From Myxococcota bacterium (GTDB lineage: Bacteria > Myxococcota_A > UBA796 > GCA-2862545): a stretch of 64,000 nt of DNA. The translations under genes and the position numbers were made by a program. How positions within the stretch are numbered: the stretch's first letter is position 1; every line of letters begins with the position of its first letter. Of this stretch, positions 28,324 through 49,974 are shown piece by piece. The notes below the pieces were generated by a model. It saw nothing but the letters and a program-made list of their open reading frames with translations. It did not search any database and was not told the DNA's origin. The stretch is from the NCBI GenBank assembly GCA_039208735.1, contig JBCCQY010000027.1:1-64000 (forward strand), read 5' to 3'.

Positions 28324-28404
28324 CCATTTGTCCTTGCTCGACGTTCGGGTCGATTGGAGCAAACCAACGGAATCTCTGCTATCCCCTGACCGGGGTAGAC
28401 CCCT

Positions 28405-29943
28405 TCAAGACTGTCGAAGACCGAAGCGGCGGATCAGTGAGTGGACGTACCCTCGATGCAGCCCCAATTGCTGTGCGGCCTGCGTCACGTTGCCCTCGCT
28501 CCGCTCCAGGGTTTCCTGGAGCAGCTGTGCCTGAAACCGTCTGGTGGCCTCCTGCCAAGTGAGCGGTGACATATCGCTTCTCATGCTTGCTTCGGGAAAC
28601 GCGTGGCGTGGGAGGACCACCTGGCCTCCTTCTCCCGTACACAACACAACAGCTTCCTCGAGGGCCTTTGCCAGTTGACGAACGTTGCCTGGCCATTCTC
28701 TGGACTCGAGCTCCCGAAGCAGTTCAATAGAGGCGGTGCACCTGGGGAGTGACGGTTGCCGAAGGCAGAAGGCTTCAATCACGTGTTCGGCAAGGACCGC
28801 GATATCTTCGGTCCGCTCCGCGAGCGTCGGCATCCGAATCGTAAACGACTTTAGACGATAGTAGAGATCCTTTCTGAACTCCTTCGATTCAACTAGTTCA
28901 GCAAGGTTCCGATTGCTCGCACTGATGATGCGAATGTCCGCGGGCCGAGTGGCCCCACCAACCGGGGCATAGGTTTTTGATTGAAGAAGTTCGAGCAGGG
29001 CCGACTGCGTCTCGTAGTTGAGGGCATCGATCTCATCGAGGAAGAGCGTTCCCCCGATTGCACGGTCAACATGGCCTCCCACGGCAGTATTGGCGCTGGT
29101 GAAGACTCCCTTGTGGTGGCCGAACATCTCACGTTCGAAGACACTGCGCGGCACCGCGCCACAGGTAACAGAGTGAAAGGGGCCTGCACGACGTGCACTG
29201 TTGCGGTGGATGATACTGGCCAGGGTCGACTTTCCGGTCCCCGTGTCTCCTGTGATGTGGATGTCGATCTCGATCGGAGAAGCGCTTGCGGCGCGCTTCA
29301 ACATCGCCGCGAGTGCTGCACTCCGCCCTACGAGTTCGTCACAGGAAAAGCGACTCCTCACATCGGCGGTATCATCTGCTTCCTGTAGCCTTCGAATCCG
29401 CTCCACGGCGGGAGCGAGCATCGCCGCCAGCGCCCTCACAAGATCTACATCATCAGATTCAAACGCCTCGCCATCCATCCGATTCTGAATGTAGACGACG
29501 CCGATGGGAAGGTCACCCCTGAGAATGGGTGCGCAGACAACGGCCTCGATCTGGAAGTTCCGGGCCGAGATAGAAGCCAGCTTGGGGTCAAGCATGGCGG
29601 AGACCGTCGAAATCACATCGACCGCCTCTCGCGCAGCTTTCACGATGGCACTTGACGTGCGAGCTCGAACCTCCCTTAAGGACGTCTCGTCATCACACCC
29701 CTGTGCCCTCCACCAGAGCGCCGCTCCGCGGTCGTCTTGCACCTCGACGTACGCCTGGCGGGCCTGGGTGAGTTCGACGAGGAGGGGCAATACTCCCCCA
29801 ATCAGCTCACCACTGTCGCTGACATGCCACAAATCAAGTGCACGCTGCAAGAGTTGTCGTCGGTCCACGAGGTGCCTCCAGCCATGAGCATCGGACACCT
29901 CACCGCGAAGTACAATCCCCCATTCCGGGGACACTGTCAGCAA
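28405..29943 (-). CDS. sigma54-interacting Fis-family activator with GAF domain
   Basis: GAF (VVCAPI..GVVYIQ), GDTGTGKS, GVFTSA loop, LFLDEID, FRKDLYYRL, WPGNVRQL, Fis HTH. Start is uncertain. Confidence 0.9.
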   Translation of the reverse strand: MLTVSPEWGIVLRGEVSDAHGWRHLVDRRQLLQRALDLWHVSDSGELIGGVLPLLVELTQARQAYVEVQDDRGAALWWRAQGCDDETSLREVRARTSSAIVKAAREAVDVISTVSAMLDPKLASISARNFQIEAVVCAPILRGDLPIGVVYIQNRMDGEAFESDDVDLVRALAAMLAPAVERIRRLQEADDTADVRSRFSCDELVGRSAALAAMLKRAASASPIEIDIHITGDTGTGKSTLASIIHRNSARRAGPFHSVTCGAVPRSVFEREMFGHHKGVFTSANTAVGGHVDRAIGGTLFLDEIDALNYETQSALLELLQSKTYAPVGGATRPADIRIISASNRNLAELVESKEFRKDLYYRLKSFTIRMPTLAERTEDIAVLAEHVIEAFCLRQPSLPRCTASIELLRELESREWPGNVRQLAKALEEAVVLCTGEGGQVVLPRHAFPEASMRSDMSPLTWQEATRRFQAQLLQETLERSEGNVTQAAQQLGLHRGYVHSLIRRFGLRQS

Positions 29944-30058: not shown

Positions 30059-30823
30059 ATGATGGTCGCTGAAATTCAGAACGTCCTGGGAGCCCTGGCC
30101 GCAAAGGCAACAAGCGCCGCGTTTGCTGAACTGCTGGCCGTCGACAACGACGTGAAGATCGGTCGCGTGGCGGGGAGTGGCCTCGACGGTGATGTTCCGA
30201 GGACCGGAACGGGCTCCGTCTGGATGGTCATTCCCGAGCTGTGGACCTGCCGCCGCCAACTCCCTCTCAATGGCCTCGCCCGCCTAGGTGATGACCTGGT
30301 CGGGTTCGTGACCCGGGACAAGCGCATCGCGGGCATGGTGCTGGTTCGCAACGCCTCTCGACGGCCTGGAGCAATGGCGCTCGACACTTTGAGGGAAGCA
30401 ATCCAAGACCTGCGGCCACCTAACGAGACCGGAGAATCCTGGATCGCCGATCGACGGGGGCGCCCCCTTCTATGGCAAGCGGATCGACCCGCGCCAGCCA
30501 TCATTCCCAACGTACATGAGGGGCCCCTTCTGTTTTGCGGTGGTGCGTACCACACGACTCAGGCCCTTACTGGCGGAGAGACGCCGCGATTCATGGTCGC
30601 GCGTATGCCTGCTCGTTGGCTCAACATCACACCTCTCCTAAGGCTGTCGCCCCACCAGATCGAAGTGGCGGAGAGTGCCGCCGCCGGAGCGACCATTCCC
30701 GAGATTGCCAGGTCACTGAACCGCAGCGACGAAACCATAAAGTCGCATCTTCGGGAGGTGTACCGGCGGCTGGACGTTGGAAGTCGGCTCGAACTCGCCG
30801 AGATTTGCAACGCGGCTTGGTGA
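30059..30823 (+). CDS. LuxR-type HTH transcriptional regulator
   Basis: C-terminal LSPHQIEVA...EIARSLNRSDETIKSHLREVYRRLDV. Confidence 0.82.
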   Translation: MMVAEIQNVLGALAAKATSAAFAELLAVDNDVKIGRVAGSGLDGDVPRTGTGSVWMVIPELWTCRRQLPLNGLARLGDDLVGFVTRDKRIAGMVLVRNASRRPGAMALDTLREAIQDLRPPNETGESWIADRRGRPLLWQADRPAPAIIPNVHEGPLLFCGGAYHTTQALTGGETPRFMVARMPARWLNITPLLRLSPHQIEVAESAAAGATIPEIARSLNRSDETIKSHLREVYRRLDVGSRLELAEICNAAW

Positions 30824-30877: not shown

Positions 30878-32053
30878 GTGGCGAGACACGCAGTGGTGGT
30901 CGGAGAGGGCGTAGCAGCATGCGCTACGGTACTGACCCTCGAACGTACAGGGTTCGATGTCACACGGATGCGTTCGGTTCCCGAGTCCGACAGATCGACG
31001 ATTTTAGGACCGCCCGATGATCTGTGGATTGCACTATGGAAGAATGGAGTGAGTTGTCTACGGGCACTCGGAATCACAGACTTTCCAGACTCCAACACTC
31101 CAAAGTTCGAACGTGCACAATTTCGAGAGCATCGAGGAGCTGATGTAGCCACCGTATCGCTCGATCCAGGTGCGTTCTTCGTCCAGCGGCGCGTTCTTCG
31201 GCAACGGATTGAAAAGGAACTCAGAGCGCACCCGCCTGAGTCGGAGCTATGGACCGCCTGCGACCAACCCAACAGCGTGCATATTCACGACATGAGTGGG
31301 GGAGTGAAGAGCTGCGATTTGCTGATCGGTGCAGACGGCATCCGTGGTCGCACACGCCAAATGCTCCATGGCAACGCGGGCATACGATCGGCGAATCAAC
31401 AGGTCGTGTGCGGATTCACATCACTGAACGAGCCCTCCCTTCGTGCTGCTGTCGATCGATTCATTCCTGGAGGGTTAGCGCTGTCCACGGCTGACGATGC
31501 CTCGTTGTTCGTCGGGCTGCGAGTCGCAGACGATAGGCTGTATTGGTACTGTGCAGGTCTCGCTTCATTGGGAACGTGGGACTCTGTACCCGAACTGACC
31601 GCAGTGCTCGCACGACGATTCCGGTCGTTTCATGAGCCGATCCCTACCATCCTGGAGCACGGAACTCCGTCTCCACAAGGCCTTTTCGTGGAGGATCTTC
31701 GACCCGGAACACGGTTTACGCGCGGGCGAATCGCGCTGGTCGGAGATGCCGCGCATGCCATGACACCGGACCTTGGTCAAGGCTGCAACCAGAGCCTCGA
31801 AGACGCTGTGTCGCTTGGAAAGGCTCTTGGGAGGAAGACGAGCGTCCTTTCCGCGTTGCGGGACTTCGCGCACGAGCGGGAACCTCGCGCAGGGCTGATC
31901 ACGGAAGTCTCCTACCTGCTCTCTCAAGCCACGCTGCCTGGCTCGTCGCTGGGAGCCGTCGCACGGGATGGTCTAATGTGGTTGGGTCGACCCTTTCACG
32001 TTGCTTCCATGCGCTGGATCCTCGACGGAGGTCCGGCCCAGGCCGCAGGATGA
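30878..32053 (+). CDS. FAD-dependent monooxygenase (salicylate hydroxylase-like family)
   Basis: DLLIGADGIRG, IALVGDAAHAMTPDLGQGCNQSLEDA; GAGG RBS. Confidence 0.9.
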   Translation: MARHAVVVGEGVAACATVLTLERTGFDVTRMRSVPESDRSTILGPPDDLWIALWKNGVSCLRALGITDFPDSNTPKFERAQFREHRGADVATVSLDPGAFFVQRRVLRQRIEKELRAHPPESELWTACDQPNSVHIHDMSGGVKSCDLLIGADGIRGRTRQMLHGNAGIRSANQQVVCGFTSLNEPSLRAAVDRFIPGGLALSTADDASLFVGLRVADDRLYWYCAGLASLGTWDSVPELTAVLARRFRSFHEPIPTILEHGTPSPQGLFVEDLRPGTRFTRGRIALVGDAAHAMTPDLGQGCNQSLEDAVSLGKALGRKTSVLSALRDFAHEREPRAGLITEVSYLLSQATLPGSSLGAVARDGLMWLGRPFHVASMRWILDGGPAQAAG

Positions 32054-35000
32054 CCGCAACCGCATCTCGATCCTTTCCGGAACGCTTCACCTGGAAGGAG
32101 GCGCTTGGAAGCGGCCAACTTGGCGAAGTCGATCTTGTTCATGACCACGACCTTGAAATTGACGTGGCCCTGAAGAACCTGCCGACTCCCGACCCAGGCC
32201 TCATCACATCGCTAAAGCACGAGTTCCGGCTTGCCAGTAGCCTGGAACATCGCAACCTGGTGCGTCTGTACGAACTATTGATCGACGATCATCATTGTGC
32301 ATTCACAATGGAACCGATCCATGGGGACCTCTTTACGATTGTCTTGAGCCAAGCACTGGAGGACGGAGACGACGAGCGTGTTCGATCGTTGGTGAGTCAA
32401 CTCGTGGCTGGCGTGGCCCAACTCCATGACGCCCACATCATCCATCGCGACGTGAAACCGACAAACGTCCTCGTTGAACATCAATCGGATCGAGTGGTCG
32501 TACTGGACCTTGATCTCGCCTGGTCAACCAGGCTCGGCATGCCGAGAAGCGCTAGTGGAACACCGCAATACATGGCGCCGGAGGCCCTGTGGGGCCGAGC
32601 CAACTATGAATCGGATTGGTATGGGGTGGGAGCAACCCTCTGTGAAGCCGTCTGGGGCGCACCCCCTTCACAGGTGGTCCGTCATTCAGACGGGGTGCCC
32701 AGTTGGCTTGTTTCGGTCATCGACGAGTTGCTTTCGGAAAAGCCAGAAGATAGGCCCAATCGCTTTGAACTGCGCCAGAAACTTGGTCTCGATGCCCCAT
32801 CCGCACCGCCCTACGTTCCTCTGCTCGGGCGCAAGGCGGAATTGGCGAGATTCGACCAAGCCCTGGAGAACCTTCGGCGCGGATTGCCCGACGCACTGCT
32901 GGTGACGGGCCCATCGGGAATGGGCAAATCTCGGTTGCTCGAGGAGTTTCTGCTTCGGGCACGCCCAGAATCAGATGTCCTCATTCTCACCGGCAACTGC
33001 CGAAATGCCGAAACGCTTCCATTTAAGGCGATCGACCCATTGGTGGCGTCACTGACCGACCACATCGACCGTCGGCGAAGGGAAGATGCCGCGTGGTGGG
33101 ACCCACCTGAGGAGTGGTGGCCCGCAACCTATTTGTTTCCTGAGCTGGTCCAGGTCCTGTCCCCACCCCCACCAAGTGGCGTGGTTCATCTGCCGGAAGC
33201 CCGACGCCGGCTGGCCATCGTGGCATTGCGAGGCCTCTTAGGGTGGTTGGCCCAGCAGTCGAGGCTGGTTTGGATGCTTGATGACGCTCAATGGGGAGAC
33301 GAGGCCAGTGCTGGGCTTCTGCGCCAGCTCGTGACTGAACCCACGCCACTTCCAGTGTTGATGGTGGTCGCTGCCCGGACCGAACCTTCATTAGGCCCCT
33401 TTGTTGAGGCGTGGCGCCTGTCCACCCAGCCCGATGTGGTCCAAATGCAGCGATTGCTGACAGCGGACATTGAAGAACTCCTGGGTGAAACTATCGATCC
33501 TTCGATGGTCAAACAGGTTGCGGAACAGTGTGATGGCAATCCGTTCCTGCTCCAAGAAGCTGTTCGAAATGCCACGCTCGGCCGAACTCTCAACATCCAC
33601 GATGTGGAAGGGGAGCGTCTCCGTGGGTTGAGTCCCATCGAACGGGATCTCGCTACGTTACTGGCTCTTGCCAAAGGCCCCGTCCCTCGTGCCGCCGTCC
33701 TGCAAGCCATCGGAGCCAGCGCTGACGCTTTTTCGGCGATTCTGAGCCTTGAGAGACTAGGGCTACTCCACGTCGTTGCAGGTGACCGTACCTTGGCGAC
33801 CGGGCACGCGCGGTACCGTGAACGACTTCTTTCGGAGGTTGATGACCGGACACGACGTTCGGGACACGGACGGCTGGCCGATGCACTGGCTCGCTTTCGA
33901 GGGTTGTTGGGTCCTGCTCGATTGCTACCTCATCTCATCGGAGCGGAACGTTTTGGAGAGGTTTGCCAAGTCGCGCTTGAAGCTGCGGCGACTGCTCAGG
34001 GTACCTCGAGATTTGAGGAAGAGGCTGCCTATCTCGAAATGGCCATTGAATATGGTCCGGTCTCCGACCGCTGGTCATTGATGGAGCGCCAGGGGGACGC
34101 TTGGCGCGCGGCGGGACTCGGACCAAAGGCAAGCCAGGCATACCTAGAGGCCCTTGCAGCGTCGGATCAACGTGGAAGCCTGGCGCAGCGCCGGCGGCTC
34201 TTGGTCAAAGCGGGTCAGGAACTCATCCGTCATGGAGAACAGGCCCGCGGCACAGAACTTCTCCGTACTGCGTTGCGTGAACTGGGCGTACGAGCCCCTC
34301 GCACGGCCAACGCAGCTTTGATGATGGGAGTGTTTACCCGCCTGCCCGTGTACCTGTGGGGGCTCATCAGAGCGCCGCATCGCGAGGACAAGCAACTTCC
34401 CGCGCGGGTCGAAGAACGGCTCAACGCACTATGGATGGCGACCAACGCCCTTTCTCAGGCCGATGTGACCCTAAGCTTCGCGCTGTCTGGGCGCTATCTG
34501 GCTGAAGCGGTTCGTTGTCGTGCTCCCAAGCACATGCATGCGGCACTCGGCACGGAGGCAGCCATCCACGCGTCCATCGGCAACGCGGCCTCGACGCAAC
34601 GTGTCGACGAACTGTTGACTCACATCACTTCGCTGGCCGATGCCACGGATGAAGAGTGGCGCATCGGCACCCCTGCGTTCATTGGCGTAGCCGCCTGGCA
34701 TCTGGGGCGTTGGGCTGAAGCGGAGGCGGCGAGCATTCAAGCGACCAATGCCTTTCGGCGTTCCCCGATTGGTCATGCGTGGGAATTGGCCACGATGCAG
34801 CACTACGCTTTCTCCGCCCGGTTCTTCCGCGGCGACATTGAAGGTTTGCAGGACGCGGTTGATGAGGCACGCGAAGCGGCGATTGATCGGGGTGATCGCC
34901 ATGCGGCATCGGCGCTCGCGCTTGGAGAGCCGGGCCTGGTGCGGCTGCTCGAGGGACGGCCGGAAGAAGCGCACCGGGCACTCAAGGAGGCGGATCAGGC

Positions 35001-35436
35001 TGGTTTTGTAGCGGGTCCTGACTTGACGACCTATTACTACACTGTCCTAGAGGGGCATCTCGCCTTGTTCGAAGGGCGTTTCCACGACGCTAGGCGAGTC
35101 CTTGAGGAACGTTGGCCTCTGTTTCGCCAGGGCCGCGTCTTGGATGTCCAGAACGCCAGGGCGTGGCTCACGTACCTCAAGGGCATCGCCATTGCGCGAA
35201 CCAGTGAACGACAACAGGGAGCCTCCAGGTTGCGCGCCTGTGTCCGCACCTTGAAGGCATGCACCACCCGCCCCGCTGCGGGGATGGCCTCCGCCCTCGA
35301 AGCGAGACGGGCAAAACTTCTCGGCCGCCCCACTGAGGCGGCAGAGGCTCAAGCTCGTGCAGACGAGCAGCTGGCCAAGGCCGACACCTGGATTCTGCGT
35401 AGCACGTCCGAAGGGGCAAGCTGGCTTCGTCTATAG
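32050..35436 (+). CDS. Ser/Thr protein kinase + AAA ATPase + TPR-like protein
   Basis: GSGQLG, VALK, HRDVKPTN, GTPQYMAPE; second Walker A GPSGMGKS, LDDAQWGD, GNPFLL; ATGA overlap with the monooxygenase stop. Confidence 0.9.
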   Translation: MTATASRSFPERFTWKEALGSGQLGEVDLVHDHDLEIDVALKNLPTPDPGLITSLKHEFRLASSLEHRNLVRLYELLIDDHHCAFTMEPIHGDLFTIVLSQALEDGDDERVRSLVSQLVAGVAQLHDAHIIHRDVKPTNVLVEHQSDRVVVLDLDLAWSTRLGMPRSASGTPQYMAPEALWGRANYESDWYGVGATLCEAVWGAPPSQVVRHSDGVPSWLVSVIDELLSEKPEDRPNRFELRQKLGLDAPSAPPYVPLLGRKAELARFDQALENLRRGLPDALLVTGPSGMGKSRLLEEFLLRARPESDVLILTGNCRNAETLPFKAIDPLVASLTDHIDRRRREDAAWWDPPEEWWPATYLFPELVQVLSPPPPSGVVHLPEARRRLAIVALRGLLGWLAQQSRLVWMLDDAQWGDEASAGLLRQLVTEPTPLPVLMVVAARTEPSLGPFVEAWRLSTQPDVVQMQRLLTADIEELLGETIDPSMVKQVAEQCDGNPFLLQEAVRNATLGRTLNIHDVEGERLRGLSPIERDLATLLALAKGPVPRAAVLQAIGASADAFSAILSLERLGLLHVVAGDRTLATGHARYRERLLSEVDDRTRRSGHGRLADALARFRGLLGPARLLPHLIGAERFGEVCQVALEAAATAQGTSRFEEEAAYLEMAIEYGPVSDRWSLMERQGDAWRAAGLGPKASQAYLEALAASDQRGSLAQRRRLLVKAGQELIRHGEQARGTELLRTALRELGVRAPRTANAALMMGVFTRLPVYLWGLIRAPHREDKQLPARVEERLNALWMATNALSQADVTLSFALSGRYLAEAVRCRAPKHMHAALGTEAAIHASIGNAASTQRVDELLTHITSLADATDEEWRIGTPAFIGVAAWHLGRWAEAEAASIQATNAFRRSPIGHAWELATMQHYAFSARFFRGDIEGLQDAVDEAREAAIDRGDRHAASALALGEPGLVRLLEGRPEEAHRALKEADQAGFVAGPDLTTYYYTVLEGHLALFEGRFHDARRVLEERWPLFRQGRVLDVQNARAWLTYLKGIAIARTSERQQGASRLRACVRTLKACTTRPAAGMASALEARRAKLLGRPTEAAEAQARADEQLAKADTWILRSTSEGASWLRL

Positions 35437-35856
35437 AAGAGTGAGATTGTCTCGATCCCTACCCGCGAATGGCTTCCCAAAAGCCTTCGCCGAAATCGGG
35501 CTCTTACCGATGCGTTCCCCAATCTGCTGGGTTGCCCACAACGACTGTAGGATTTCGGCCGATTTGTCAGGATCGTCGATCCGTGCGGCAACCTTACTTT
35601 TTGAGCGCAATTCTTGCCACAGTCGTTGGAGCCGTGCAGGTCCGTCCTGCAGCACACATGGGGGGCCATTCTCGCCGCAGGTACATCCTCCTCCTCCGGC
35701 ACCTGTGCAAGAATGTGCACCTGAGGCGTGCTCGATGCCGTTGCATACCGTGAAGTCACAATCATCTACGAGCGTCGTTTCTAGAACGATGAATCGGATG
35801 TTTCCCTGCCAGATTGCGAGAGAATTGGTGGAGTCATCAATCTCAATCTCTATCAA
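35431..35856 (-). CDS. hypothetical protein, last gene of the isoprenoid operon
   Basis: Start overlaps the stop of the flavoprotein gene; 141 aa with several Cys. Confidence 0.5.
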   Translation of the reverse strand: MIEIEIDDSTNSLAIWQGNIRFIVLETTLVDDCDFTVCNGIEHASGAHSCTGAGGGGCTCGENGPPCVLQDGPARLQRLWQELRSKSKVAARIDDPDKSAEILQSLWATQQIGERIGKSPISAKAFGKPFAGRDRDNLTLL

Positions 35857-38495
35857 CGATCTTCCCTCCGGTTGAGCAGGACCGCCAGGTGATTGACCAG
35901 GGCCGTCCCAATGCCCGAAAAGGACTGAGCGTAGCTCCTGATGGCCTCACCGAGGGAGTCCGGCTTATTGGACCCGAACACACTAGATTCAATCTTGAGA
36001 ATATCGACGAGGTGGGGAAGCCCGCGAGCGGTTAGCTCACGATCCAGCCGCCGCATAAACTCTAGGTCGTCAAGCTCACGCTCGTCGACATCATACAGTG
36101 AACAAGGTGTGAACAGCATCTCGTTCGTGACCTTCATGCGAGCATTCAACAGCGCATTTGTCGCGCGTCGGGCAGACTCGTTTGCAGCTTCCATCGTTGG
36201 GATTCGTGTACTCGTAGGAAGCCATGTCCCACAAAAGACCACGGTATCTCCAAACCACGCTCGGTAGCATGCTGTTTCATACTTGCGCCAAAGCGCAGCG
36301 AGCTCAACCGTATTTACCAGGTAGGGGCTCGAATTCTTAATGACCTGACGCGGACTCGACAGGGTAGGCTCTCCAAAGTGGATGGCCTGATCGATGAAGA
36401 AATCGGGCGGCGTCTCGGGAAGATCGGCCCCCGCAGATGACAAACCCCTGCTAAGCTGTTGCCAGACCTCCTCTGCAAGCTGTTGTTCATCGCACTTCCA
36501 GGCAACTTTTCCGGTTCGGGACTCTACGTTCCAAGCCCCAATGATCACAGAAATGGCACCCCGATAGCCGAACTCTCGGCTGCGTCGTCGACCTCGGAAC
36601 TGTCCCTGGGAAATCGAAGACAGACGCCACTCGGAGTCGGGGTAGTAGATGTGACCATCCAGAATTTCGTAGTCACGATGCATGAAAAACTGGATGCCTG
36701 CGAAATGTCGGTACGGAAGTTTTTCAGGCGGAGCCATTTCAGTCGTGACCGCCTGCTCATAGGTCTTGACATCCTCCAACGTGACTTGGTCCCAGGTGGT
36801 CTCCCGTTGTTCGATGTGTTGCAAACCGCTCGCAACCAAATCCAGTGCCAACGCAATGGGCGAAGCCGCAAGCTCATCCCGAATGGGTTGCTGGAGGTCT
36901 TTGTGGAGGCTCTCGTCGATGGAGTCCCGAAGCCCGACGCCTAGCCGGGCAACGGTTAAGGGGGGCAATGCCAACGCGATGTACCGCCTTTGAGAGGGCG
37001 TACGGTCAGCAAAGGGAATGTTTCTTTTGTGTTTTGAGCCGTAGTCAAGTTGAATCGCAGGATTACCCTGCTCGGAGGTCACGAAGCGAAGCGAATCGAG
37101 GTTGCGGCGGAAAGCCGTTACAACGTATTCTTCGCGAAGGAAGTCAATCCAAGGGTCGAGCCAGGCCTCGGTGGTGGGACCGTTGAGCGTACCGTCGATG
37201 ACGGGCTCTTTTCGGATGTGAGACAGTAACAACTGCATGGTGATGGAGCCGAAGGTTCGAGCATCCGCTAGATCGGCGCGCAGCCCAACGAGGGCTTGTG
37301 GCCAGTGCACTAGGGCATTGCGGTAGGCTGGTCCGGCGGACTCACCTCTCGAAAATGTGAACCAGGTGGTGCGCTCGTATTGTTCCCGCCGAGCTGGACA
37401 GCTGGTGAGGTACCGAAAGGTGGCGAGTTGGCCTCGTTGAGCGTCCTCGTTGGTAATGCCAAGTTCGTGCTGAATGGCATCCGCGAACCGAGAGAATTCC
37501 GCCCAAGACTGCTTCAGCGTCCGTGGTAATACGACAGGCCGGTGGCCAGACTCGGAGGCAAAGGCGTGCTGATCCACTGAGATCAGGTTGTCGAACACAC
37601 TATGCAGAGATGGTTCAAACTGTCCTGGGTCCCAAAAATCCCCCGGAAAAGCACTCTGCAACGCACGATTGATGGAAGGCTGGAACGGTCGACCTGGGAT
37701 GAACGTGCGACGCATGGTGTCAAACAGGTGTTTGTAGAACCCTGGAAAGAATCGGTAGCCGTGTTCGCCAGGAACGAGTTCCTCATGCAGAGCGATGACG
37801 ACGCACGGCTGAACCTTGCTTGGATCGGGTTTGAAGAGCCGACTCAGTTCGTCTTCACGACGATAATCTGTCGCCTGCAACACCTCCTCTGCAGAGCCGA
37901 GCCTACCGCTGCGTACAACCAAGGGAAAGGGGGGCCGAGGTCCCGTGACGTCCTTTCCCCGTTGGAGGAGGTCCTGAAGCTCGTTCTTGACTTTCTCGGC
38001 ATTTCGTTCGGCATCCTGGGCGTTGCTCGCGATCCCACCCACAAAAACCAGGCTTGCCCAACCCTTGGGAATGTCTGCTTCAGCTGCCCAATCGAGGATT
38101 CGCGTGGCGATGCCACGCAGTTGCTGGGTTCGGTCCTTGTCGGACATCACGAGGCGAGGCCAGCGACCTGCACGCCGCTTCTTTGTCTCGGTCTTCACGT
38201 CGGCCCACAAGTCCGTCGGGGGCCGGAGATGTCGCGGTCGATTGTCTACCCGAAGAGCCGTCTGGTGAAACCAGCCGATCTCCGGTAACATTTTGCTGAA
38301 GATCGGTGCTGCGCCGTACTGGTTTGCGGCAAGACCACCGAGCCTCGGATCCGAGAGCGTCCGGCTATCGACAGCGGCTTCAAACAGCCCGATGCTAAAT
38401 CCGCGTTGAGCAAGTTCATGGGCGGCTGTCATGCCGGCTACACCTGCACCCACAATGTTCACAACGCCGGGCTTAAGGTCGGTTTCGTTGATCAT
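35853..38495 (-). CDS. FAD-dependent oxidoreductase (HpnE/carotenoid desaturase-like superfamily) with a large insertion
   Basis: IVGAGVAGMTAAHEL, LGGLA, PGEHGYRFFPGFY.H..DTM.R, LNGPT.EAWLDPW, TMEAANESARRA.NA. Confidence 0.85.
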   Translation of the reverse strand: MINETDLKPGVVNIVGAGVAGMTAAHELAQRGFSIGLFEAAVDSRTLSDPRLGGLAANQYGAAPIFSKMLPEIGWFHQTALRVDNRPRHLRPPTDLWADVKTETKKRRAGRWPRLVMSDKDRTQQLRGIATRILDWAAEADIPKGWASLVFVGGIASNAQDAERNAEKVKNELQDLLQRGKDVTGPRPPFPLVVRSGRLGSAEEVLQATDYRREDELSRLFKPDPSKVQPCVVIALHEELVPGEHGYRFFPGFYKHLFDTMRRTFIPGRPFQPSINRALQSAFPGDFWDPGQFEPSLHSVFDNLISVDQHAFASESGHRPVVLPRTLKQSWAEFSRFADAIQHELGITNEDAQRGQLATFRYLTSCPARREQYERTTWFTFSRGESAGPAYRNALVHWPQALVGLRADLADARTFGSITMQLLLSHIRKEPVIDGTLNGPTTEAWLDPWIDFLREEYVVTAFRRNLDSLRFVTSEQGNPAIQLDYGSKHKRNIPFADRTPSQRRYIALALPPLTVARLGVGLRDSIDESLHKDLQQPIRDELAASPIALALDLVASGLQHIEQRETTWDQVTLEDVKTYEQAVTTEMAPPEKLPYRHFAGIQFFMHRDYEILDGHIYYPDSEWRLSSISQGQFRGRRRSREFGYRGAISVIIGAWNVESRTGKVAWKCDEQQLAEEVWQQLSRGLSSAGADLPETPPDFFIDQAIHFGEPTLSSPRQVIKNSSPYLVNTVELAALWRKYETACYRAWFGDTVVFCGTWLPTSTRIPTMEAANESARRATNALLNARMKVTNEMLFTPCSLYDVDERELDDLEFMRRLDRELTARGLPHLVDILKIESSVFGSNKPDSLGEAIRSYAQSFSGIGTALVNHLAVLLNRREDR

Positions 38496-38898
38496 CGGTA
38501 GTCTCCTGACAGTACTCACGAAAGCCCTGCAGGAGCGCGGGGGCTTCTGGGGAACGAATGCAGGCATTCAGGAACACGCCAAGGGCTGACTCCAGAGCCA
38601 GGAGGTCCTGGAGCGTGCCGACGAACTCCAACTCTCCCGAGCCCAAAGCGGCCAGCAGCGTAGTGTCGTGATCCAAAAGGCGAAGCAGCGCACCCGGCGA
38701 CGTGCGCACGGTCACGGGGGATGACCTTGCAGGGGCTGTTCTTAGCTGGGCGTCGGTTGCGCTGAGACAGAAGCGCTCGTCAGAGCATTCGACGAGCACG
38801 CGGACGCTCGCGATCAAGGTCACCACCTGCGCATACAAAGCCGGGTGGCGGCGATGCACCATCGAGACGGCAGGTTCGACGAATCGACTCCGGAACAC
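38473..38898 (-). CDS. SCP2 sterol/lipid-carrier domain protein
   Basis: VRTSPGALLRLLDHDTTLLAALGSGELEFVG, typical of the SCP2 C-terminus; operonic position. Confidence 0.72.
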   Translation of the reverse strand: MFRSRFVEPAVSMVHRRHPALYAQVVTLIASVRVLVECSDERFCLSATDAQLRTAPARSSPVTVRTSPGALLRLLDHDTTLLAALGSGELEFVGTLQDLLALESALGVFLNACIRSPEAPALLQGFREYCQETTDDQRNRP

Positions 38899-38899
38899 A

Positions 38900-39937
38900 T
38901 CACGCTCCCAGGAATTCGAAAACGGTGTTGCACGTCAGTTCGATGGGCCCGTCGGCCGTCTTGCCCTGCACATGACAAGAACCTGAAACCTCGTTGATGA
39001 TCGTCACCCCGAGGTCGTCGTCGTTCGGAATGATCACCTGCGCAACGGCGCGGCTTTCGAATGTGACGTAAACGGAGGCTGTGGCGTGGTGTGCCTCAAT
39101 GATGACCCGGGCCGGGATATCCGTCGCCGATCCTTGAGAGAGAAGGGCCATGACTGGCGGCAGCTTGTGAACGTACGAAGGGCGAAGTAATCCTTCGTGT
39201 CGAATCGTAATCTCGGTGTCGCGAAAGGCCTCGGCAGGTCGAGCACCATGCCAAAGGAACGCGGTCTGCATCAGGATTCGAGTAAGGGAGCGGTCGTTGA
39301 GTCTGGCGAATACGAAGGACCATGGATTGTGGGGCTCCGCGGGAATCGCAAACCCCCATTCCCATGCGAAGTCACGGCCCCACCTAAAGTGACCCCAGTT
39401 GTGGTCATGATAGGCTGGAGTTCGGTCGAGTCGCAGTCGCCGTTCCCCCACGCTGACTTCGCCCGTTGCATGGAGTCGAGGCACCACCACCCAGTGGATC
39501 GGTGGGCTATCTCCAACCACCACGTTGTAGACGGGCACCGGCAAGGCCATAGGGGAAAGCGACACGTCGAGACGAATCTCTGGGGTGCTGTGGGTTTGTG
39601 CCCACAAGCGGTATCGACCGTTCTCAAAACGCAATCCACTGGGCCCGAAATCTGCTTCGATGGTTCCACCTCGCACGCCGATGGCTCCGGCGGGAAACGT
39701 GTCGATCGCACCGTGCCAGCGGTCATTCATCTGAACCATCAAAGTTTGACGGACGTCTGTGTCACTCCCCGATGGATGGTCCACCTCGCTGAAGTTCACC
39801 AGCAGATCAAGACCGCCCGCATAGATGCAAAAGTGCATCCACTCCTTGAATCCAGGCTCAAAGCCAATTCTGGACGGCGGCCGACGAAACCAGTCGGTTC
39901 GTTCAATGGCTCTCGCCAACTCGGCTCTCCCGATCAT
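38900..39937 (-). CDS. CrtC/AttH/tocopherol-cyclase-like beta-barrel enzyme
   Basis: FKEWMHF, AYHDHNWG, WEWGF motifs; all-beta pattern. Confidence 0.72.
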   Translation of the reverse strand: MIGRAELARAIERTDWFRRPPSRIGFEPGFKEWMHFCIYAGGLDLLVNFSEVDHPSGSDTDVRQTLMVQMNDRWHGAIDTFPAGAIGVRGGTIEADFGPSGLRFENGRYRLWAQTHSTPEIRLDVSLSPMALPVPVYNVVVGDSPPIHWVVVPRLHATGEVSVGERRLRLDRTPAYHDHNWGHFRWGRDFAWEWGFAIPAEPHNPWSFVFARLNDRSLTRILMQTAFLWHGARPAEAFRDTEITIRHEGLLRPSYVHKLPPVMALLSQGSATDIPARVIIEAHHATASVYVTFESRAVAQVIIPNDDDLGVTIINEVSGSCHVQGKTADGPIELTCNTVFEFLGA

Positions 39938-40212
39938 CGAAGCAAGTCGTTTAGGAAATGGCCATGAGCTTGCTCAATTGGCTCCTGTGTTCGCGGCGGT
40001 GCCACACGTTCCAGGGACTCAGCGAGCGCAATCAAGCCAAGGACAGCCAACGTGACCGACGACGGTTCTCCATCGGGGATATCGCCTGTTGAAGGCGGAG
40101 CAAGCTCACCGAGCCAACGGTGCAGACGCTCGGTGCCAGACAACATGCCGAGCACCGCTTGCAGCAAAAGATTCTGATCAGAATAGCGGTTGGGCCGCCG
40201 GTCCAGGATCAT
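39934..40212 (-). CDS. hypothetical protein
   Basis: ATGA-coupled on both sides within the operon. Confidence 0.62.
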   Translation of the reverse strand: MILDRRPNRYSDQNLLLQAVLGMLSGTERLHRWLGELAPPSTGDIPDGEPSSVTLAVLGLIALAESLERVAPPRTQEPIEQAHGHFLNDLLR

Positions 40213-40595
40213 TGCGGCACACCCTTGATGCCGTCTTCCAACACTTCTTGAACTCGATCCGCAACCGAGGGATCCGTGGCTGCTCGTACGATGGCTTCGA
40301 CGATGGCAGTGGGCAAAACAACCTGATCATCATCGTCGAACGTTCGCAACGGGAGACCATCCCAGATGACGCGGACCCGTTCTACGAGTTCAGAGCCCTC
40401 GAGGCGGGCCAGCCACTCGGCACCGGAGTCTGTCCGGCTGAATCGACGTCCCTCCTGGACAAGTGATGCAAACAGTGCCTGTGCCGCCACGGGATGTCCA
40501 AGCACCGACCGTCTCAACGCCCGCAATGCCTCGGTGACCTCGTCAACGGCATTGTAATGGAACACCACACAGCCTGGCGCGTGGTCGTCGCTCAT
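40209..40595 (-). CDS. hypothetical helical protein
   Basis: ATGA coupling, AGGAG RBS; HPVAAQALFASLVQEGRRF motif. Confidence 0.72.
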   Translation of the reverse strand: MSDDHAPGCVVFHYNAVDEVTEALRALRRSVLGHPVAAQALFASLVQEGRRFSRTDSGAEWLARLEGSELVERVRVIWDGLPLRTFDDDDQVVLPTAIVEAIVRAATDPSVADRVQEVLEDGIKGVPQ

Positions 40596-41218
40596 GTGGA
40601 CTCCTGACCGTAAAGCACAACGGGAATAGGTGCCAAGTCGCTGCCAACCTCTAGTGCGGCAAATCCCCGTAGGGTTTCCTTGGGTGTGACATCACCGAAG
40701 GCCAGCGTGACGACCACCGTGATGGTTTCTCCCGGACGGAGATGGATGGTGGCAGGGCTGAACGAGGTCTGCCACGTCTGTTTGCCCAGCTGGATCGTGG
40801 TCGGGAACCGAGCTGACAGCCACTGCCCCAGCCGGTTCTCAATGAGAAGTTCGCCTTTGGCTTCGTCAGACGATGCTCTGCGCAGTTCGAGTGGCCGATC
40901 AACTCGGTGGGGCGCGGAGCGTTGGGTTGAAGTCGCGCCCGATGTCCCTTCGAGCCAGCCGATGAGGACCCGGTGGGCGCGCGTCTGGAGTTGGAGGACC
41001 TCTCGTAAGGTTCGGACCGCCAAATCTACCGAATCGTAAGCAATGCCATGCGGGGAATCCTGATTGTGCGAGGAATCCGGACGTTCGCTTAAGGAGTCAA
41101 AGCGGACTTTGGCCTCGAGAGCATCCGCGAGGCCACGAACCAGTTCGTCCTCTCGTTCATGGCGTGCTCGAGCCTCCGCTCGGCCCGCCGATTTGATGTC
41201 GTCGTCCCGTTCGCCCAT
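40592..41218 (-). CDS. hypothetical protein with an Ig-like C-terminal half
   Basis: GAGGT RBS; helical N-half; C-half SFSPATIHLRPGETITVVVTL. Confidence 0.7.
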   Translation of the reverse strand: MGERDDDIKSAGRAEARARHEREDELVRGLADALEAKVRFDSLSERPDSSHNQDSPHGIAYDSVDLAVRTLREVLQLQTRAHRVLIGWLEGTSGATSTQRSAPHRVDRPLELRRASSDEAKGELLIENRLGQWLSARFPTTIQLGKQTWQTSFSPATIHLRPGETITVVVTLAFGDVTPKETLRGFAALEVGSDLAPIPVVLYGQEST

Positions 41219-41226
41219 GCGCTACC

Positions 41227-42315
41227 TCACCGCGTGCGCGCGACGACATACGCCGTCAATCCAGCGAGGAAGTCCCAATGCACGGATGTCGTCGCTGGGA
41301 CACGATGCAACGAGGACGTCGCGGAGTCAAAGGCACGACGAGCCCGAATCGCACGCAATCGAGCCTGTTCTTTGGCGTAAGAGATGCTTCCCGCTTCGCG
41401 GATGCGATTGTGAAGCCAGTGAATCTGGTCCCAGTGTTGCTTCGAGTGGTCACGGTTGGGATCCTCCGGCCGGGGCGCCGTGAGGATCGACAATGCTTGG
41501 TCTCGCTCCGACGGGGTTGCATGGCGGAGAAAATGCAACACGATGAGGGTGCGCTTCCCCTCCCATAAGTCGCCTGCAATCTCTTTTCCGTAGCTGGCTG
41601 CCGTGCCTTCGAGGTTGAGGACATCGTCGGTGATCTGAAACGCAGCCCCCATCAAGGTAGCCCACCTTAAAAGTGAGGAAAGGCGTTGCTCTGGCACGCC
41701 GGCCAGGATCCCCCCCACCCGAATGGGAGTGAGGAAGGTGTACCAAGTCGTTTTCCGATGGACCATGCGTAGATAGTCGCGAGCCGAGAGCTGCCATTGT
41801 CCGCGTCGAATCCAGCCAAGCTCGATGGCTTGCCCCTCCGCCGACCGCCGCGACATCTCAGCGATGGCGCTCAAGACTCGCAACGCTGGCCCCAACCCGA
41901 CGAGAGCGGTGTTGTCGAGGAGTGGACCGAGGCACAACCCAAGCATTGCATCGCCCGTGTTGATCGCCAGCGGCACGCCAGCCACACGGTGGAGCGTTGG
42001 CGCATCACGGCGGGCCCAGCTGCCATCCTCAATGTCGTCGTGGATCAGAAACGCGTTGTGGTAAAGCTCAAGGACCGCTGCAGTGGGAAGCACCGCCTCA
42101 GACCGGCCTCCAAGTGCACGGCAGACCGCGTAGGCTAACGCAGGTCGTAGCATCTTCGCTTCGCGAAACGGGTACTCGCGAACCAGATCGTAGAGGTCTG
42201 CGTCGAACGGGGTGTTGTTGGGCACGATGCGCTCTATCTCCGCGAGGACTTTTCTTCGCACCTCGAGAAGATAGTCTTGAACGTCTTTTTCGGAGAGAGG
42301 GGGCGAGCTTGACAT
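41227..42315 (-). CDS. polyprenyl (GGPP-type) diphosphate synthase
   Basis: KMLRP, HNAFLIHDDIEDGS..RR (FARM), GQAIEL, KTTWYT, FQITDDVLN (SARM), EGKRT. Confidence 0.93.
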   Translation of the reverse strand: MSSSPPLSEKDVQDYLLEVRRKVLAEIERIVPNNTPFDADLYDLVREYPFREAKMLRPALAYAVCRALGGRSEAVLPTAAVLELYHNAFLIHDDIEDGSWARRDAPTLHRVAGVPLAINTGDAMLGLCLGPLLDNTALVGLGPALRVLSAIAEMSRRSAEGQAIELGWIRRGQWQLSARDYLRMVHRKTTWYTFLTPIRVGGILAGVPEQRLSSLLRWATLMGAAFQITDDVLNLEGTAASYGKEIAGDLWEGKRTLIVLHFLRHATPSERDQALSILTAPRPEDPNRDHSKQHWDQIHWLHNRIREAGSISYAKEQARLRAIRARRAFDSATSSLHRVPATTSVHWDFLAGLTAYVVARTR

Positions 42316-42446: not shown

Positions 42447-42884
42447 ATGTCCTCCCGAGGTCAGGGGATATCCCCGATTCCGAAGAGCCTGCACGCTTGT
42501 GGAGTCCGACCTCGATGGGTTGGCAGGAGGATGGCATTGCCGGATGTTCGGCTTCGGGTCTCGGTTCGCCCTGAAGGACCAACGCAGTGGCTGCTTCAGT
42601 GCACATTTAACGGTGGTGAGGTGCTCCCGTACCAGCCCTTCAAAGATTCCCTCATTGGCGAGGTTGATCCTTTGTTTGTGGGGGTTGGCCCCGCTTCGGT
42701 GGTGACCGTCGTTCGCCCCGCGGTCGGGGGCTCGGTCGTTCGCGTTCACAGCAGCACGCAAGGCGGCCCCTGGAGGCTCATCGGCGAAGAGGTGGGCGGA
42801 CCGAACCAAGATGTCAGGATTGAAGGGAACTACGTGCCGGAAGCAAGTGACGATGATCCTCTAGACCCGTGGGGTGTCGCGTGA
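42447..42884 (+). CDS. hypothetical protein
   Basis: Open frame whose stop overlaps the next GTG (GTGA); start is uncertain. Confidence 0.5.
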   Translation: MSSRGQGISPIPKSLHACGVRPRWVGRRMALPDVRLRVSVRPEGPTQWLLQCTFNGGEVLPYQPFKDSLIGEVDPLFVGVGPASVVTVVRPAVGGSVVRVHSSTQGGPWRLIGEEVGGPNQDVRIEGNYVPEASDDDPLDPWGVA

Positions 42885-44110
42885 TCGCCCTATGCTTCGT
42901 GACGATCACACTCGCCTCCGAACCCAGACAAGCCATGTCGTCGGCCCACTCCGGAACCCTTCCTACGACCACCAACACGAGTCTGGCTCCCGTTATCACT
43001 GACCTTTTGTCGGCTACCATTGGGGCCTCAGAAGCCGGCTCCACGGTCACCGCAACTGCGGCACTTCATCCCTACTTCAAACGGTATGTGGGAGATCTCC
43101 GAGTCGGGGTACGGAGCGACCCCGACTCGTTCACCGTGTTCGGAGCCTATGGCTTCCACAGTGCTTCTAGGGACGTGGAACCAGCCCGTGCGTCCGAGGA
43201 ATGCTCGGCGCAGGCGCTCCTATCGGGGGACGCCAAGCAGCTTAGGAGCAGGCTTGAGCAATTCGATGCGCATCCCGAGTGGCTCTCAACCCCAACCCTC
43301 GGTCTACCTCCCCTCACAGATTCGGCGACGGAACGATTTCTCTGGCACATCAACAGTGCAGCAATCGTGTTGGGGAATAGCGCCGACGAGATAACGGATC
43401 CGGACGTTCGGGGGGAAGTGGAGCGACTCCTCCGAGAGCTGGCCTTGGCCCAAAAGAGCCTCAATTCGAAGCGCACCAATTGTCTGTCGATGAACCTCGA
43501 TCGCTCCGTGGGCCGGGCACGCACGCTGCAGCTCACCAGTTCTGTCACAGTCTTTCCGCTACTCCGAGAACCACCAGTGGCATCGGACACGATGGACGGA
43601 ACCTTCACCGACCCTACCAAGTCTCTGCTAAAGGACTACTCCATCGGATTGCAAGGTGGGTTCTTTCCTGGCCCTAAACTCGGGATCTGGCCGACCGCTT
43701 CCCTGTCGCGACGCCGACCGGACGCAGCCCAGGACACCCCCCTAGATACCCGACTCGGTGGATCACTGACTGTCTCCGTCGCCCTTACCAACTGGACGTT
43801 GAACAAAGAACGGTTCCGTCCCATCGTCGCGTTGGGGGCCACGGCGGAGCGCACCTGGTGCCTTGAACGCCCCTGTCTTCAGGCTATCCGTCCTACCTTC
43901 GCAAAGGGCACTCCGGTGGATCACGTTTCGGCGATCACGCCGTTTTGCGACGTGCGCATTTCGCAGAAGGTCCAGTTTGGTCTTGCCGTGCCGCTGCAGT
44001 GGTTTGGAACGTCGGAGGCCCCCGCGATGACCGATCCCAACACCGAAACGGACGTCATCTTTCGAACCCTGCCGTTGGTCCGTATGTCTTTGCAGACATG
44101 GTCCCTGTAG
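42881..44110 (+). CDS. hypothetical secreted / outer-membrane protein
   Basis: Hydrophobic N-terminus, beta-strand-rich C-half ending MSLQTWSL. Confidence 0.62.
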   Translation: MIALCFVTITLASEPRQAMSSAHSGTLPTTTNTSLAPVITDLLSATIGASEAGSTVTATAALHPYFKRYVGDLRVGVRSDPDSFTVFGAYGFHSASRDVEPARASEECSAQALLSGDAKQLRSRLEQFDAHPEWLSTPTLGLPPLTDSATERFLWHINSAAIVLGNSADEITDPDVRGEVERLLRELALAQKSLNSKRTNCLSMNLDRSVGRARTLQLTSSVTVFPLLREPPVASDTMDGTFTDPTKSLLKDYSIGLQGGFFPGPKLGIWPTASLSRRRPDAAQDTPLDTRLGGSLTVSVALTNWTLNKERFRPIVALGATAERTWCLERPCLQAIRPTFAKGTPVDHVSAITPFCDVRISQKVQFGLAVPLQWFGTSEAPAMTDPNTETDVIFRTLPLVRMSLQTWSL

Positions 44111-45996: not shown

Positions 45997-46097
45997 ACCC
46001 TTGCGACGTCCCCGGGTCAGGGACGATGGGTAGGTGCATGCGGAATTCGCCGCGTGATGTAGCCACTCTCGACCGGGATGAACGGATAGGAGAGAGT

Positions 46098-46658
46098 ATG
46101 CTTCATCGGGCCTTCTTCCTCGGCGCCATCCTTGCCGCGTGCGCCGATGGTTCCGACGACAAGATGAACACCGGCGATACCGCGGCGGATGCCGATGCGG
46201 ACACCGACGCCGATACGGACGCCGACACCGACGCGGATACGGATGCCGACACCGACGCGGATACGGACGCCGACACCGACGCAGATACCGACGCAGATGT
46301 GCTGGATATCGCCGGGACTTATATGTCGAACTTCGGCGCGACCTTCCAGATCTCCGAGATGGAGGTCTCGGTGGACTACGGAACGCCGGACATCTACGCG
46401 GTGGCGAGTTTCGACAATGCCGCCGGTGTCATCATCGCACAGAACGCAACGATGAACGCCTATAATGGTGATTTATGGTCGCGATTCGAATATGTGGTTG
46501 ACGGGAAAACCGTGTTTTGGTGCCAGCAGGCATTCGCCGCGGAGACCCAGCTCGACGCCGAGAACGCCGAGCCCGCCAACCGCGATGATCCGTCGATGGG
46601 CGGCTGTGGCGTTCCCGTGAACAACTTCCCCTATACGGTACTCACGCCCCCGAAGTGA
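46098..46658 (+). CDS. B12-riboswitch-associated lipoprotein with a (DADT)n linker
   Basis: AGGAG RBS; lipobox ILAAC; acidic DADT repeats, then a ~120 aa domain with two Cys. Confidence 0.82.
   Translation: MLHRAFFLGAILAACADGSDDKMNTGDTAADADADTDADTDADTDADTDADTDADTDADTDADTDADVLDIAGTYMSNFGATFQISEMEVSVDYGTPDIYAVASFDNAAGVIIAQNATMNAYNGDLWSRFEYVVDGKTVFWCQQAFAAETQLDAENAEPANRDDPSMGGCGVPVNNFPYTVLTPPK
46185..46298 (+). repeat. coding 12-bp tandem repeat encoding (DADT)n
   Basis: GACGCCGATACG / GACGCGGATACG / GATGCCGACACC variants in tandem. Confidence 0.9.
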
Positions 46659-49742: not shown

Positions 49743-49807
49743 AGGCCAGCCGGGTTTTTGGCATCGGGGGTGCACGCAGCGAGCAGGGCGACGGTGAGCA
49801 AACGCAT
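49739..49807 (-). other. 22-codon lipoprotein-signal-only ORF coupled to the TonB receptor start
   Basis: GAGGT RBS; MRLLTVALLAACTPDAKNPAGL*; stop overlaps the receptor GTG (GTGA). Confidence 0.45.
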
Positions 49808-49974
49808 GAGACCTCGAGGGTGAACCCTCTCCATGACGGACCGCGCCGACCATGTCAGCCGTAGGTGGCGGCGTCGGAGAAGGAGTACCGTGTGGGGCTT
49901 GGAACCGCTACGATAGCCCCCGTGAGCCAGCTGGTCGACGGTCGCCAGTTTGTGCCTCTTGAGGAATTTGCTTG

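Follow-up and report, generated by a model that had tools for sequence, protein, structure and literature searches.

The 64,000-nucleotide stretch of DNA analysed here (the window; a myxococcotal contig, JBCCQY010000027.1, positions 1 to 64,000) carries on its minus strand an operon in which a polyprenyl diphosphate synthase is joined to a predicted AttH-fold double beta-barrel protein (the barrel), an SCP2-like lipid carrier, a desaturase-like flavoprotein and three small proteins (Table 1). An earlier note on this DNA described eight tightly coupled open reading frames (ORFs), the first encoding the synthase and the last a protein of 141 amino acids (aa), and all eight are found in that order. 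From 5' to 3' their junctions measure 8, -4, -4, -4, 1, -23 and -4 nucleotides, with three ATGA overlaps; every neighbouring pair either overlaps or is separated by fewer than 10 nucleotides. The flavoprotein most likely starts at the ATG at 38495, which gives 880 aa and has AGGAG upstream, rather than at 38567. The G+C content of the operon region (0.56-0.61) is slightly below that of much of the window, and every operon gene is single-copy in the window's genome.

Table 1. Operon genes, linked or neighbouring genes, and the encapsulin-like gene of related loci
Feature	Position	Strand	Basis or remark
Polyprenyl diphosphate synthase (362 aa)	41227..42315	-	PF00348, both Asp-rich motifs
208-aa protein	40592..41218	-	Amphipathic N-terminal helices and probable Ig-like beta domain
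128-aa helical protein	40209..40595	-	No known family; core gene
92-aa protein	39934..40212	-	Two hydrophobic LLGL-type helices, no known family; core gene
AttH-fold double beta-barrel enzyme (345 aa)	38900..39937	-	Predicted structure, clan matches
SCP2-like lipid carrier (141 aa)	38473..38898	-	Weak PF02036 match
Phytoene-desaturase/HpnE-clan flavoprotein (880 aa)	35853..38495	-	Fold of homolog model, 185-aa insert
Orphan ORF (141 aa)	35431..35856	-	No homologs in related loci
Ser/Thr kinase with STAND-type ATPase (AAA_16) and TPR region	31978..35436	+	Convergent to operon
FAD-dependent monooxygenase (FAD_binding_3)	30878..32053	+	Pfam
GAF-domain sigma54 activator	28405..29943	-	Pfam
Encapsulin-like gene (related loci)	L052:7345-8121; L058:7354-8184	+	Directly upstream of synthase; also L175-L178

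Scanning species genomes with the barrel protein (345 aa) returned 79 loci, 59 of them close and 20 distant. The distant loci (L060-L079) contained none of the other operon genes and are excluded from all counts over 59 loci. Among the close loci, the 92-aa gene was present in all 59, the 128-aa gene in 58, the SCP2 gene in 56, the synthase in 51, the flavoprotein in 50 and the 208-aa gene in 30, in an almost invariant order; part of the absences reflect contig ends. A kinase was found in 34 loci, a sigma54 activator in 12, a monooxygenase in 5 and the 141-aa orphan ORF in none. Full operons are present in further genomes, and the co-occurrence of the gene set, on which the earlier note had staked its proposal, is borne out. 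Its set of eight genes stands only in part, as the first seven recur in relatives and the eighth does not. This orphan ORF is the least secure gene of the operon because it has no homolog in the 59 loci and has the lowest G+C content at third codon positions (0.55) among the operon genes. Elsewhere, the position that follows the flavoprotein is filled by unrelated small ORFs of 93-231 aa, which come from at least two families or are orphans. Since the synthase and the flavoprotein are missing in several loci, the fixed core is the set of genes for the 128-aa protein, the 92-aa protein, the barrel and the SCP2-like carrier. Distribution of the operon is patchy: matches were obtained in 15 of 401 genomes of the phylum (one of them weak) and in 0 of 21 genomes of the window's own family, and one genome holds three full copies. 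The operon occurs in records labelled Myxococcota, Binatota, Acidobacteriota, Actinomycetota and Sphingomonas, and the barrel gene is present in a cultured strain, Stigmatella aurantiaca DW4/3-1. A search for plasmid matches found none, and a look-up of RNA holders listed none.

The synthase scores 186 bits against PF00348 (cut-off, 27; E 1e-54) and has the hallmarks of a head-to-tail trans-isoprenyl diphosphate synthase, with two intact Asp-rich motifs (HDDxED and QxxDDxLN) and the RR and KT motifs. Residues D93, D94, D97, R102, R103, K188, T189, D230 and D231 are invariant in 48 of 48 synthases. The closest solved structure is a geranylgeranyl diphosphate synthase (1wmw, E 3e-75). Five positions before the first Asp motif, all 48 synthases of the clade have Ala where 1wmw has Trp, and at position -8 the residue is Tyr or Phe. 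Ala at -5 would permit a longer chain, yet some C20 enzymes carry Ala there; a literature search for this chain-length rule found no paper. Against the NCBIfam families every score fell below cut-off, the C20-product equivalog included. The synthase appears to belong to a dedicated trans-polyprenyl clade, as judged from a quick tree with long branches for the three paralogs of the window's genome, all of which are distant from the operon.

Neither SQS_PSY (PF00494) nor a cyclase domain was detected by Pfam in any of the eight operon proteins, in agreement with the earlier note, which had found no head-to-head synthase or cyclase in the operon. Nor do the hypothetical proteins conceal a phytoene or squalene synthase, as none of them gave such a match by Pfam, nor did the 128-aa protein in solved-structure and profile comparisons. 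At the genome level, PF00494 above cut-off was absent from 8 of 15 genomes tested, seven of which are 92-97% complete, and the operon was verified in all eight, with one contig cut short. The other seven genomes have PF00494, located in one of them (G164) about 7 kb from one operon copy. In the window's genome, a crtE-crtB pair lies apart, on another contig, and no squalene-hopene cyclase scores over cut-off. Because 8 of the 15 genomes lack PF00494 above cut-off, the pathway does not appear to need a head-to-head synthase.

The predicted structure of the barrel has a mean predicted local distance difference test score (pLDDT) of 92. Its best Foldseek match is 2ich (E 7e-11), with a structural Z of 27.1 and a root mean square deviation (rmsd) of 3.1 over 287 aligned residues. 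Matches to NE1406, CghA, kievitone hydratase, Phm7, Fsa2 and 25-phosphosteroid lyase have Z scores of 22.5-27.1, and the next non-AttH fold reaches only 7.6. On this model the barrel is a member of the AttH-like clan of CrtC, tocopherol cyclase, kievitone hydratase and 25-phosphosteroid lyase, as the CrtC/AttH-fold call of the earlier note had it. A sequence search of solved structures with the barrel gave nothing useful. The invariant residues are E32, W33, W149, Y176-H-D178-H-N-W-G-H183, E316 and E341; conserved basic residues are K31, R64, R154, R212, R216 and R239, plus four His. According to the available part of one study of CrtC, His239, Trp241, Tyr266 and Asp268 are essential, and the motif AYLDSNEG is given in its primer table (PMC4717167). 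The corresponding motif of the barrel is AYHDHNWG, in which Tyr and Asp are kept in 54 of 54 homologs; paired by motif, Tyr266 and Asp268 of CrtC are equivalent to Y176 and D178. An invariant Trp lies 27 residues before the motif Tyr. AttH hydratases are described, in the accessible text of a recent preprint, as yielding tertiary alcohols on isoprene units (10.1101/2025.10.20.683597). In one database protein (P0071) a related barrel is fused to a flavoprotein (HHalign, 98.5%), which ties the two activities together.

The flavoprotein of the window scores 22.4 bits against HpnE (TIGR03467; cut-off, 283), which places it outside that family, and it is below all Crt cut-offs. Nevertheless, HpnE is touched by a majority of the flavoprotein homologs (23 of 31), always with scores far under its cut-off. 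A sequence search of solved structures with the flavoprotein core gave nothing useful. The model of a compact homolog (L021) is closest to rice phytoene desaturase (5mog; Z 28.6, rmsd 3.0, 450 aligned residues), and the next-best structure has a Z of 23.6. The fold of this model suggests that the flavoprotein is a member of the phytoene-desaturase/HpnE clan and supports the HpnE/desaturase-like assignment made earlier. After the dinucleotide-binding motif there is a hypervariable insertion site, which holds 33-743 aa across loci and 185 aa in the window. OmpA-like inserts were recognised in 51 of 128 cases at E<1e-3, a count that includes the 13 used for profile building, and two flavoproteins have a WD40 insert; the window's insert scores E 0.84 against the OmpA-like profile. 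A Pyxidicoccus record (L022:11488-21029) contains at least four tandem flavoprotein paralogs with differing inserts.

Assignment of the 141-aa carrier to SCP2 is weak but consistent, as far as sequence comparison goes. The protein alone scores 16.2 bits against PF02036 (cut-off, 21.3; E 0.013), 7 of 51 homologs match at E<=0.01, and the best PDB matches are the SCP2 domains of UbiJ (E 0.08) and SCP2/thiolase, at E 0.08-0.09. The 208-aa protein has weak Ig-like matches (E 0.02-0.1) and is fused to the 128-aa protein in 5 of 10 homologs read. By eye, its N-terminal helix resembles the N-terminal extensions of long 128-aa homologs; a profile comparison of the two gave 1 weak match in 29 loci. The 128-aa family comprises 480 representatives at 50% clustering and has no relative among solved structures by sequence. 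Neither it nor the 92-aa protein belongs to a known family by Pfam, both have few invariant polar residues, a search of the ESM Atlas found nothing above 0.9 and one of PHROGs nothing below E 0.02. Profile comparisons of the 128-aa protein with the synthase (HHalign, 0.7%), of the 92-aa protein with the 128- and 208-aa proteins and of the 208-aa protein with encapsulin were all negative. A predicted complex of the 128- and 92-aa proteins scored 0.44 (best control, 0.00), with contact agreement of at least 55% and a partner pLDDT of about 50, and was rated weak; 116 of 157 solved pairs and 2 of 215 mismatched ones attain the mark for this score, and 18 of the former and both of the latter lie at or below 0.60. 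The idea that these proteins form a scaffold gains indirect support from the 208/128 fusions, this weak predicted complex and the encapsulin genes found beside relatives.

In 12 loci of actinobacterial type, a gene for a protein of 255-300 aa lies directly upstream of the synthase. The entire operon was seen beside this gene in five loci (L052 and L175-L178), and the gene occurs in 6 of 401 genomes of its actinobacterial family. Family 1 encapsulin entries make up 14 of 15 PDB matches of its profile, none of them significant singly (E 0.37-2.3). Compared directly, it matches the family 1 profile at 60.8% (HHalign; E 8e-5, 199 columns; controls, 0.1%) and the shell genes of sister synthase-flavoprotein operons at 94.5%. 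Four shell genes of related loci (L008, L148, L150 and L155) pass PF04454 itself, with 57-81 bits against a cut-off of 24.3; in L008, an operon of the window's type, shell gene and synthase are divergently oriented. In the quick tree, the actinobacterial synthases fall together with the core synthases (support, 88). These comparisons suggest that the actinobacterial gene is like a divergent family-1-like encapsulin lying below Pfam detection. Sister operons in L148, L150, L155 and L133 combine a STAND nucleotide cyclase, a DUF3237 gene, a family 1 encapsulin and a related flavoprotein and synthase; neither barrel nor SCP2 was found in the locus DNA examined.

A second class of operons has several helix-plus-Ig genes like the 208-aa gene together with a barrel, SCP2 and synthase, mostly without the flavoprotein. 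Its additional genes encode IspH, a methyltransferase, an acyltransferase, a glycosyltransferase or a geranylgeranyl-reductase-like protein; the acyltransferase is DGAT-like, and related operons also have a NUDIX/IDI-like gene. Four loci (L126, L130, L145 and L164) have a synthase of the same clade, a long flavoprotein and a helix-plus-Ig gene near a kinase, and L126 and L130 have an acetoacetate-decarboxylase-like gene in addition. Runs of helix-plus-Ig genes were noted at L051:6537-9339 and in L103, L109, L111-L113, L119, L122, L138 and L149, accompanied by a protein of about 150 aa with beta-type repeats, a conserved tail ending in Cys, no Pfam match and a structural look.

The convergent kinase was left out of the earlier note, as were the frequent monooxygenase and sigma54 activator, and the extent of the module has to be revised. 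Out of 110-150 kinase-like places in the window's genome, 26 of 32 downstream convergent kinases match the window kinase best, and on this evidence the STAND kinase is part of the operon module. Actinobacterial copies have an AAA_16-GAF-cyclase gene in its place. Besides the loci counted above, a gene of the monooxygenase family lies near the operon in L086, L188 and L192-L194, and the window gene was the best match for 1 of 4. The window sigma54 activator was the best match for 8 of 13 activators from relatives. However, a sigma54 promoter matching at least 9 of 10 positions was found in 0 of 51 regions upstream of the synthase (shuffle mean, 0.26), so direct control of the operon by this activator is unsupported. 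A LuxR-type helix-turn-helix gene (30059-30823, plus strand) upstream of the monooxygenase and kinase has no homolog in the 59 loci. The module is flanked by ORFs of 462 aa (26974-28362, minus strand) and 413 aa (42869-44110, plus strand) with signal-like N termini and no Pfam match above cut-off, neither of which was found in related loci. Further away are a lipoprotein-like ORF with a DADT/DADA tandem repeat (46026-46658, plus strand) and, by eye, a 696-aa TonB-dependent-receptor-like gene with a 355-aa lipoprotein-like gene (46699-49853, minus strand), adjoined by a dihydroorotase-like gene.

The genes of the set, their folds, the intactness of the synthase motifs and the linkage of the kinase are established here, and from them we infer a series of chemical steps. 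In the account that we favour, in which our confidence is evenly divided, the barrel hydrates or cyclises a linear polyprenyl chain, the flavoprotein alters the redox state of this chain and SCP2 carries it on a soluble protein scaffold, with no head-to-head joining. The synthase would provide a polyprenyl diphosphate of C20 or somewhat longer. Tyr176 and Asp178 of the barrel may then add a proton to an isoprene double bond, which would lead to a tertiary alcohol, in the manner of CrtC, or to a ring, and the flavoprotein would desaturate or reduce the chain. The SCP2-like carrier and the 128-, 92- and 208-aa proteins would keep hold of the intermediate, which is insoluble; some lineages would also house the enzymes in a family-1-like encapsulin. 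A lineage-specific methyl-, acyl- or glycosyltransferase or a monooxygenase would cap the hydroxyl, and the presence of such capping transferases in relatives is consistent with a hydroxyl-bearing product. Control of the pathway, or sensing of its product, is the likely role of the STAND kinase. The earlier view that the pathway is uncharacterised still holds: no characterised match or published account of the cluster was found in the literature searched, which covered neither MIBiG, nor most subscription journals, nor the spreadsheet supplement of the encapsulin paper.

Several observations weigh against this account. In 8 of the 59 loci no synthase was found near the barrel, and in at least six loci (L012-L014, L016, L018 and L025) the upstream DNA holds other genes instead. 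The flavoprotein is missing in 9 of the 59, including the full-length Sorangium loci L028-L030 and Sphingomonas L051. The fixed core may therefore not be limited to a single substrate. Kinship or duplication links many of the loci (L012/L013; L021=L083, L027=L085, L009=L087), and the counts overstate their independence. The equivalent of CrtC His239 is not kept, as the barrel column two before W149 is I, L or M, and the Pfam matches of the barrel homologs, all weak, favour tocopherol cyclase (seen in 25 of 54, at best with E 4e-4) over CrtC (4 of 54; best E 0.002). The AttH fold is also used by Diels-Alderases and a phosphate lyase. Finally, neither PF04454 nor three profiles found a shell gene in the window's genome, which is 92.7% complete.

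It is also possible, though we think it unlikely, that the barrel is the missing terpene synthase, eliminating diphosphate from the polyprenyl diphosphate so that the flavoprotein receives a hydrocarbon or cyclic terpene to desaturate. In favour of this alternative, hydrocarbons are the substrates of phytoene desaturases, and a lyase role would account for the removal of diphosphate that the hydration account leaves unexplained. The conserved basic residues and four His of the barrel could bind diphosphate or metal. The 25-phosphosteroid lyase, which the available part of its description presents as a phosphate-eliminating C-O lyase (PMC8449060), shares the barrel fold with a Z of 22.5; however, it is the weakest of the six AttH matches, with 9% identity, and the Tyr-x-Asp motif points to protonation.

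A distinctly improbable alternative is that the barrel resembles tocopherol cyclase and forms a chromanol ring on a prenylated quinol, with the prenyl group supplied by the operon's synthase and the prenyltransferase encoded elsewhere. Tocopherol cyclase is the commonest Pfam hint among barrel homologs, the best PDB match of the SCP2-like protein is UbiJ, and monooxygenase and UbiE-like methyltransferase genes recur nearby. However, no aromatic prenyltransferase or ring-supply gene is recurrent among the neighbours of the 59 loci, and all the tocopherol cyclase scores are below cut-off; the window barrel itself reaches 12.4 bits against PF14249 (cut-off, 26.6). We regard as very unlikely the proposal that the 128- and 92-aa proteins act as catalysts or as a small subunit of the synthase and, together with it, perform a condensation of a new kind or set chain length. 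Theirs are the most constant genes, and one database protein (P0241) joins a synthase fragment to a 128-aa domain, but P0241 reads like a frameshifted assembly, the 128-aa profile is unlike the synthase, invariant polar residues are few in both proteins and both genes persist where the synthase is missing. That the operon is an add-on modifying carotenoids or squalene from a synthase elsewhere in the genome would fit the crtE-crtB pair of the window's genome, the seven genomes with PF00494 and the carotenoid-type backbones that CrtC-like and desaturase-like enzymes normally use, according to the accessible part of PMC9907078, but is extremely unlikely given the eight operon genomes without PF00494 above cut-off and the lack of a squalene-hopene cyclase over cut-off in the window's genome.

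Our results point to a real and widespread family of isoprenoid clusters, apparently undescribed, in which known folds occur in a new arrangement. Terpene genome mining keyed to known cyclases or head-to-head synthases would pass over such clusters. They bring to light two protein families without a name, a candidate for a new AttH reaction, an unusual insertion site in an enzyme of the desaturase clan and an encapsulin-like shell missed by Pfam, and may point to new terpene chemistry inside a compartment. A more ambitious proposal, which we hold to be doubtful, is that the barrel represents a new class of terpene synthase or cyclase within a mobile, kinase-controlled terpenoid factory, built on a divergent family-1 encapsulin or on a shell-free 208/128/92-SCP2 scaffold. 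If so, the encapsulin form would be that of actinobacteria and some others, and the linked STAND kinase could be reading the product as a lipid signal; this would account for the hypervariable insert of the flavoprotein and for the occurrence of three divergent copies in a single genome. That the chemistry is categorically new is improbable, but far from negligibly so.

Among known systems, 25-phosphosteroid lyase and the archaeal hydroxy-glycerol dialkyl glycerol tetraether synthase share with the barrel an AttH fold acting at an isoprenoid tertiary carbon, but their substrates and gene contexts differ, and the lyase is only about 9% identical. The HpnCDE squalene pathway includes the NCBIfam family nearest to the flavoprotein, HpnE, but two flavoproteins scored singly gave about 22-29 bits against a cut-off of 283, and the operon lacks HpnC, HpnD and a cyclase. 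Similarly, the tocopherol cyclase (VTE1) pathway has an AttH-clan barrel and supplies the most frequent Pfam hint, whereas the operon's barrel is below cut-off and no aromatic prenyltransferase is among its recurring neighbours. The soluble ubiquinone metabolon combines the UbiJ SCP2 domain and small UbiK with flavoenzymes and a polyprenyl substrate. The operon likewise has an SCP2-like carrier (with UbiJ its best, weak PDB match), small helical proteins, a flavoenzyme and a predicted polyprenyl substrate, but it lacks the Ubi enzyme set, its small proteins have no family match and it is a patchy accessory rather than housekeeping system. Family 2B encapsulins enclose terpene cyclase or polyprenyl transferase cargo, and no family 1 operon of the present kind is listed in the available part of that survey (PMC8346489). 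As in those pathways, the shell gene of relatives adjoins a polyprenyl synthase, but their shell is family-1-like (PF04454 or more divergent) and a class I terpene cyclase is lacking. The acyclic carotenoid end-group pathway (CrtE/B/C/D/F) shares a prenyl synthase, an AttH enzyme with Tyr-x-Asp, a desaturase-clan flavoprotein and variable capping transferases; in contrast to it, the operon dispenses with CrtB and CrtC His239 and adds SCP2 and three uncharacterised proteins.

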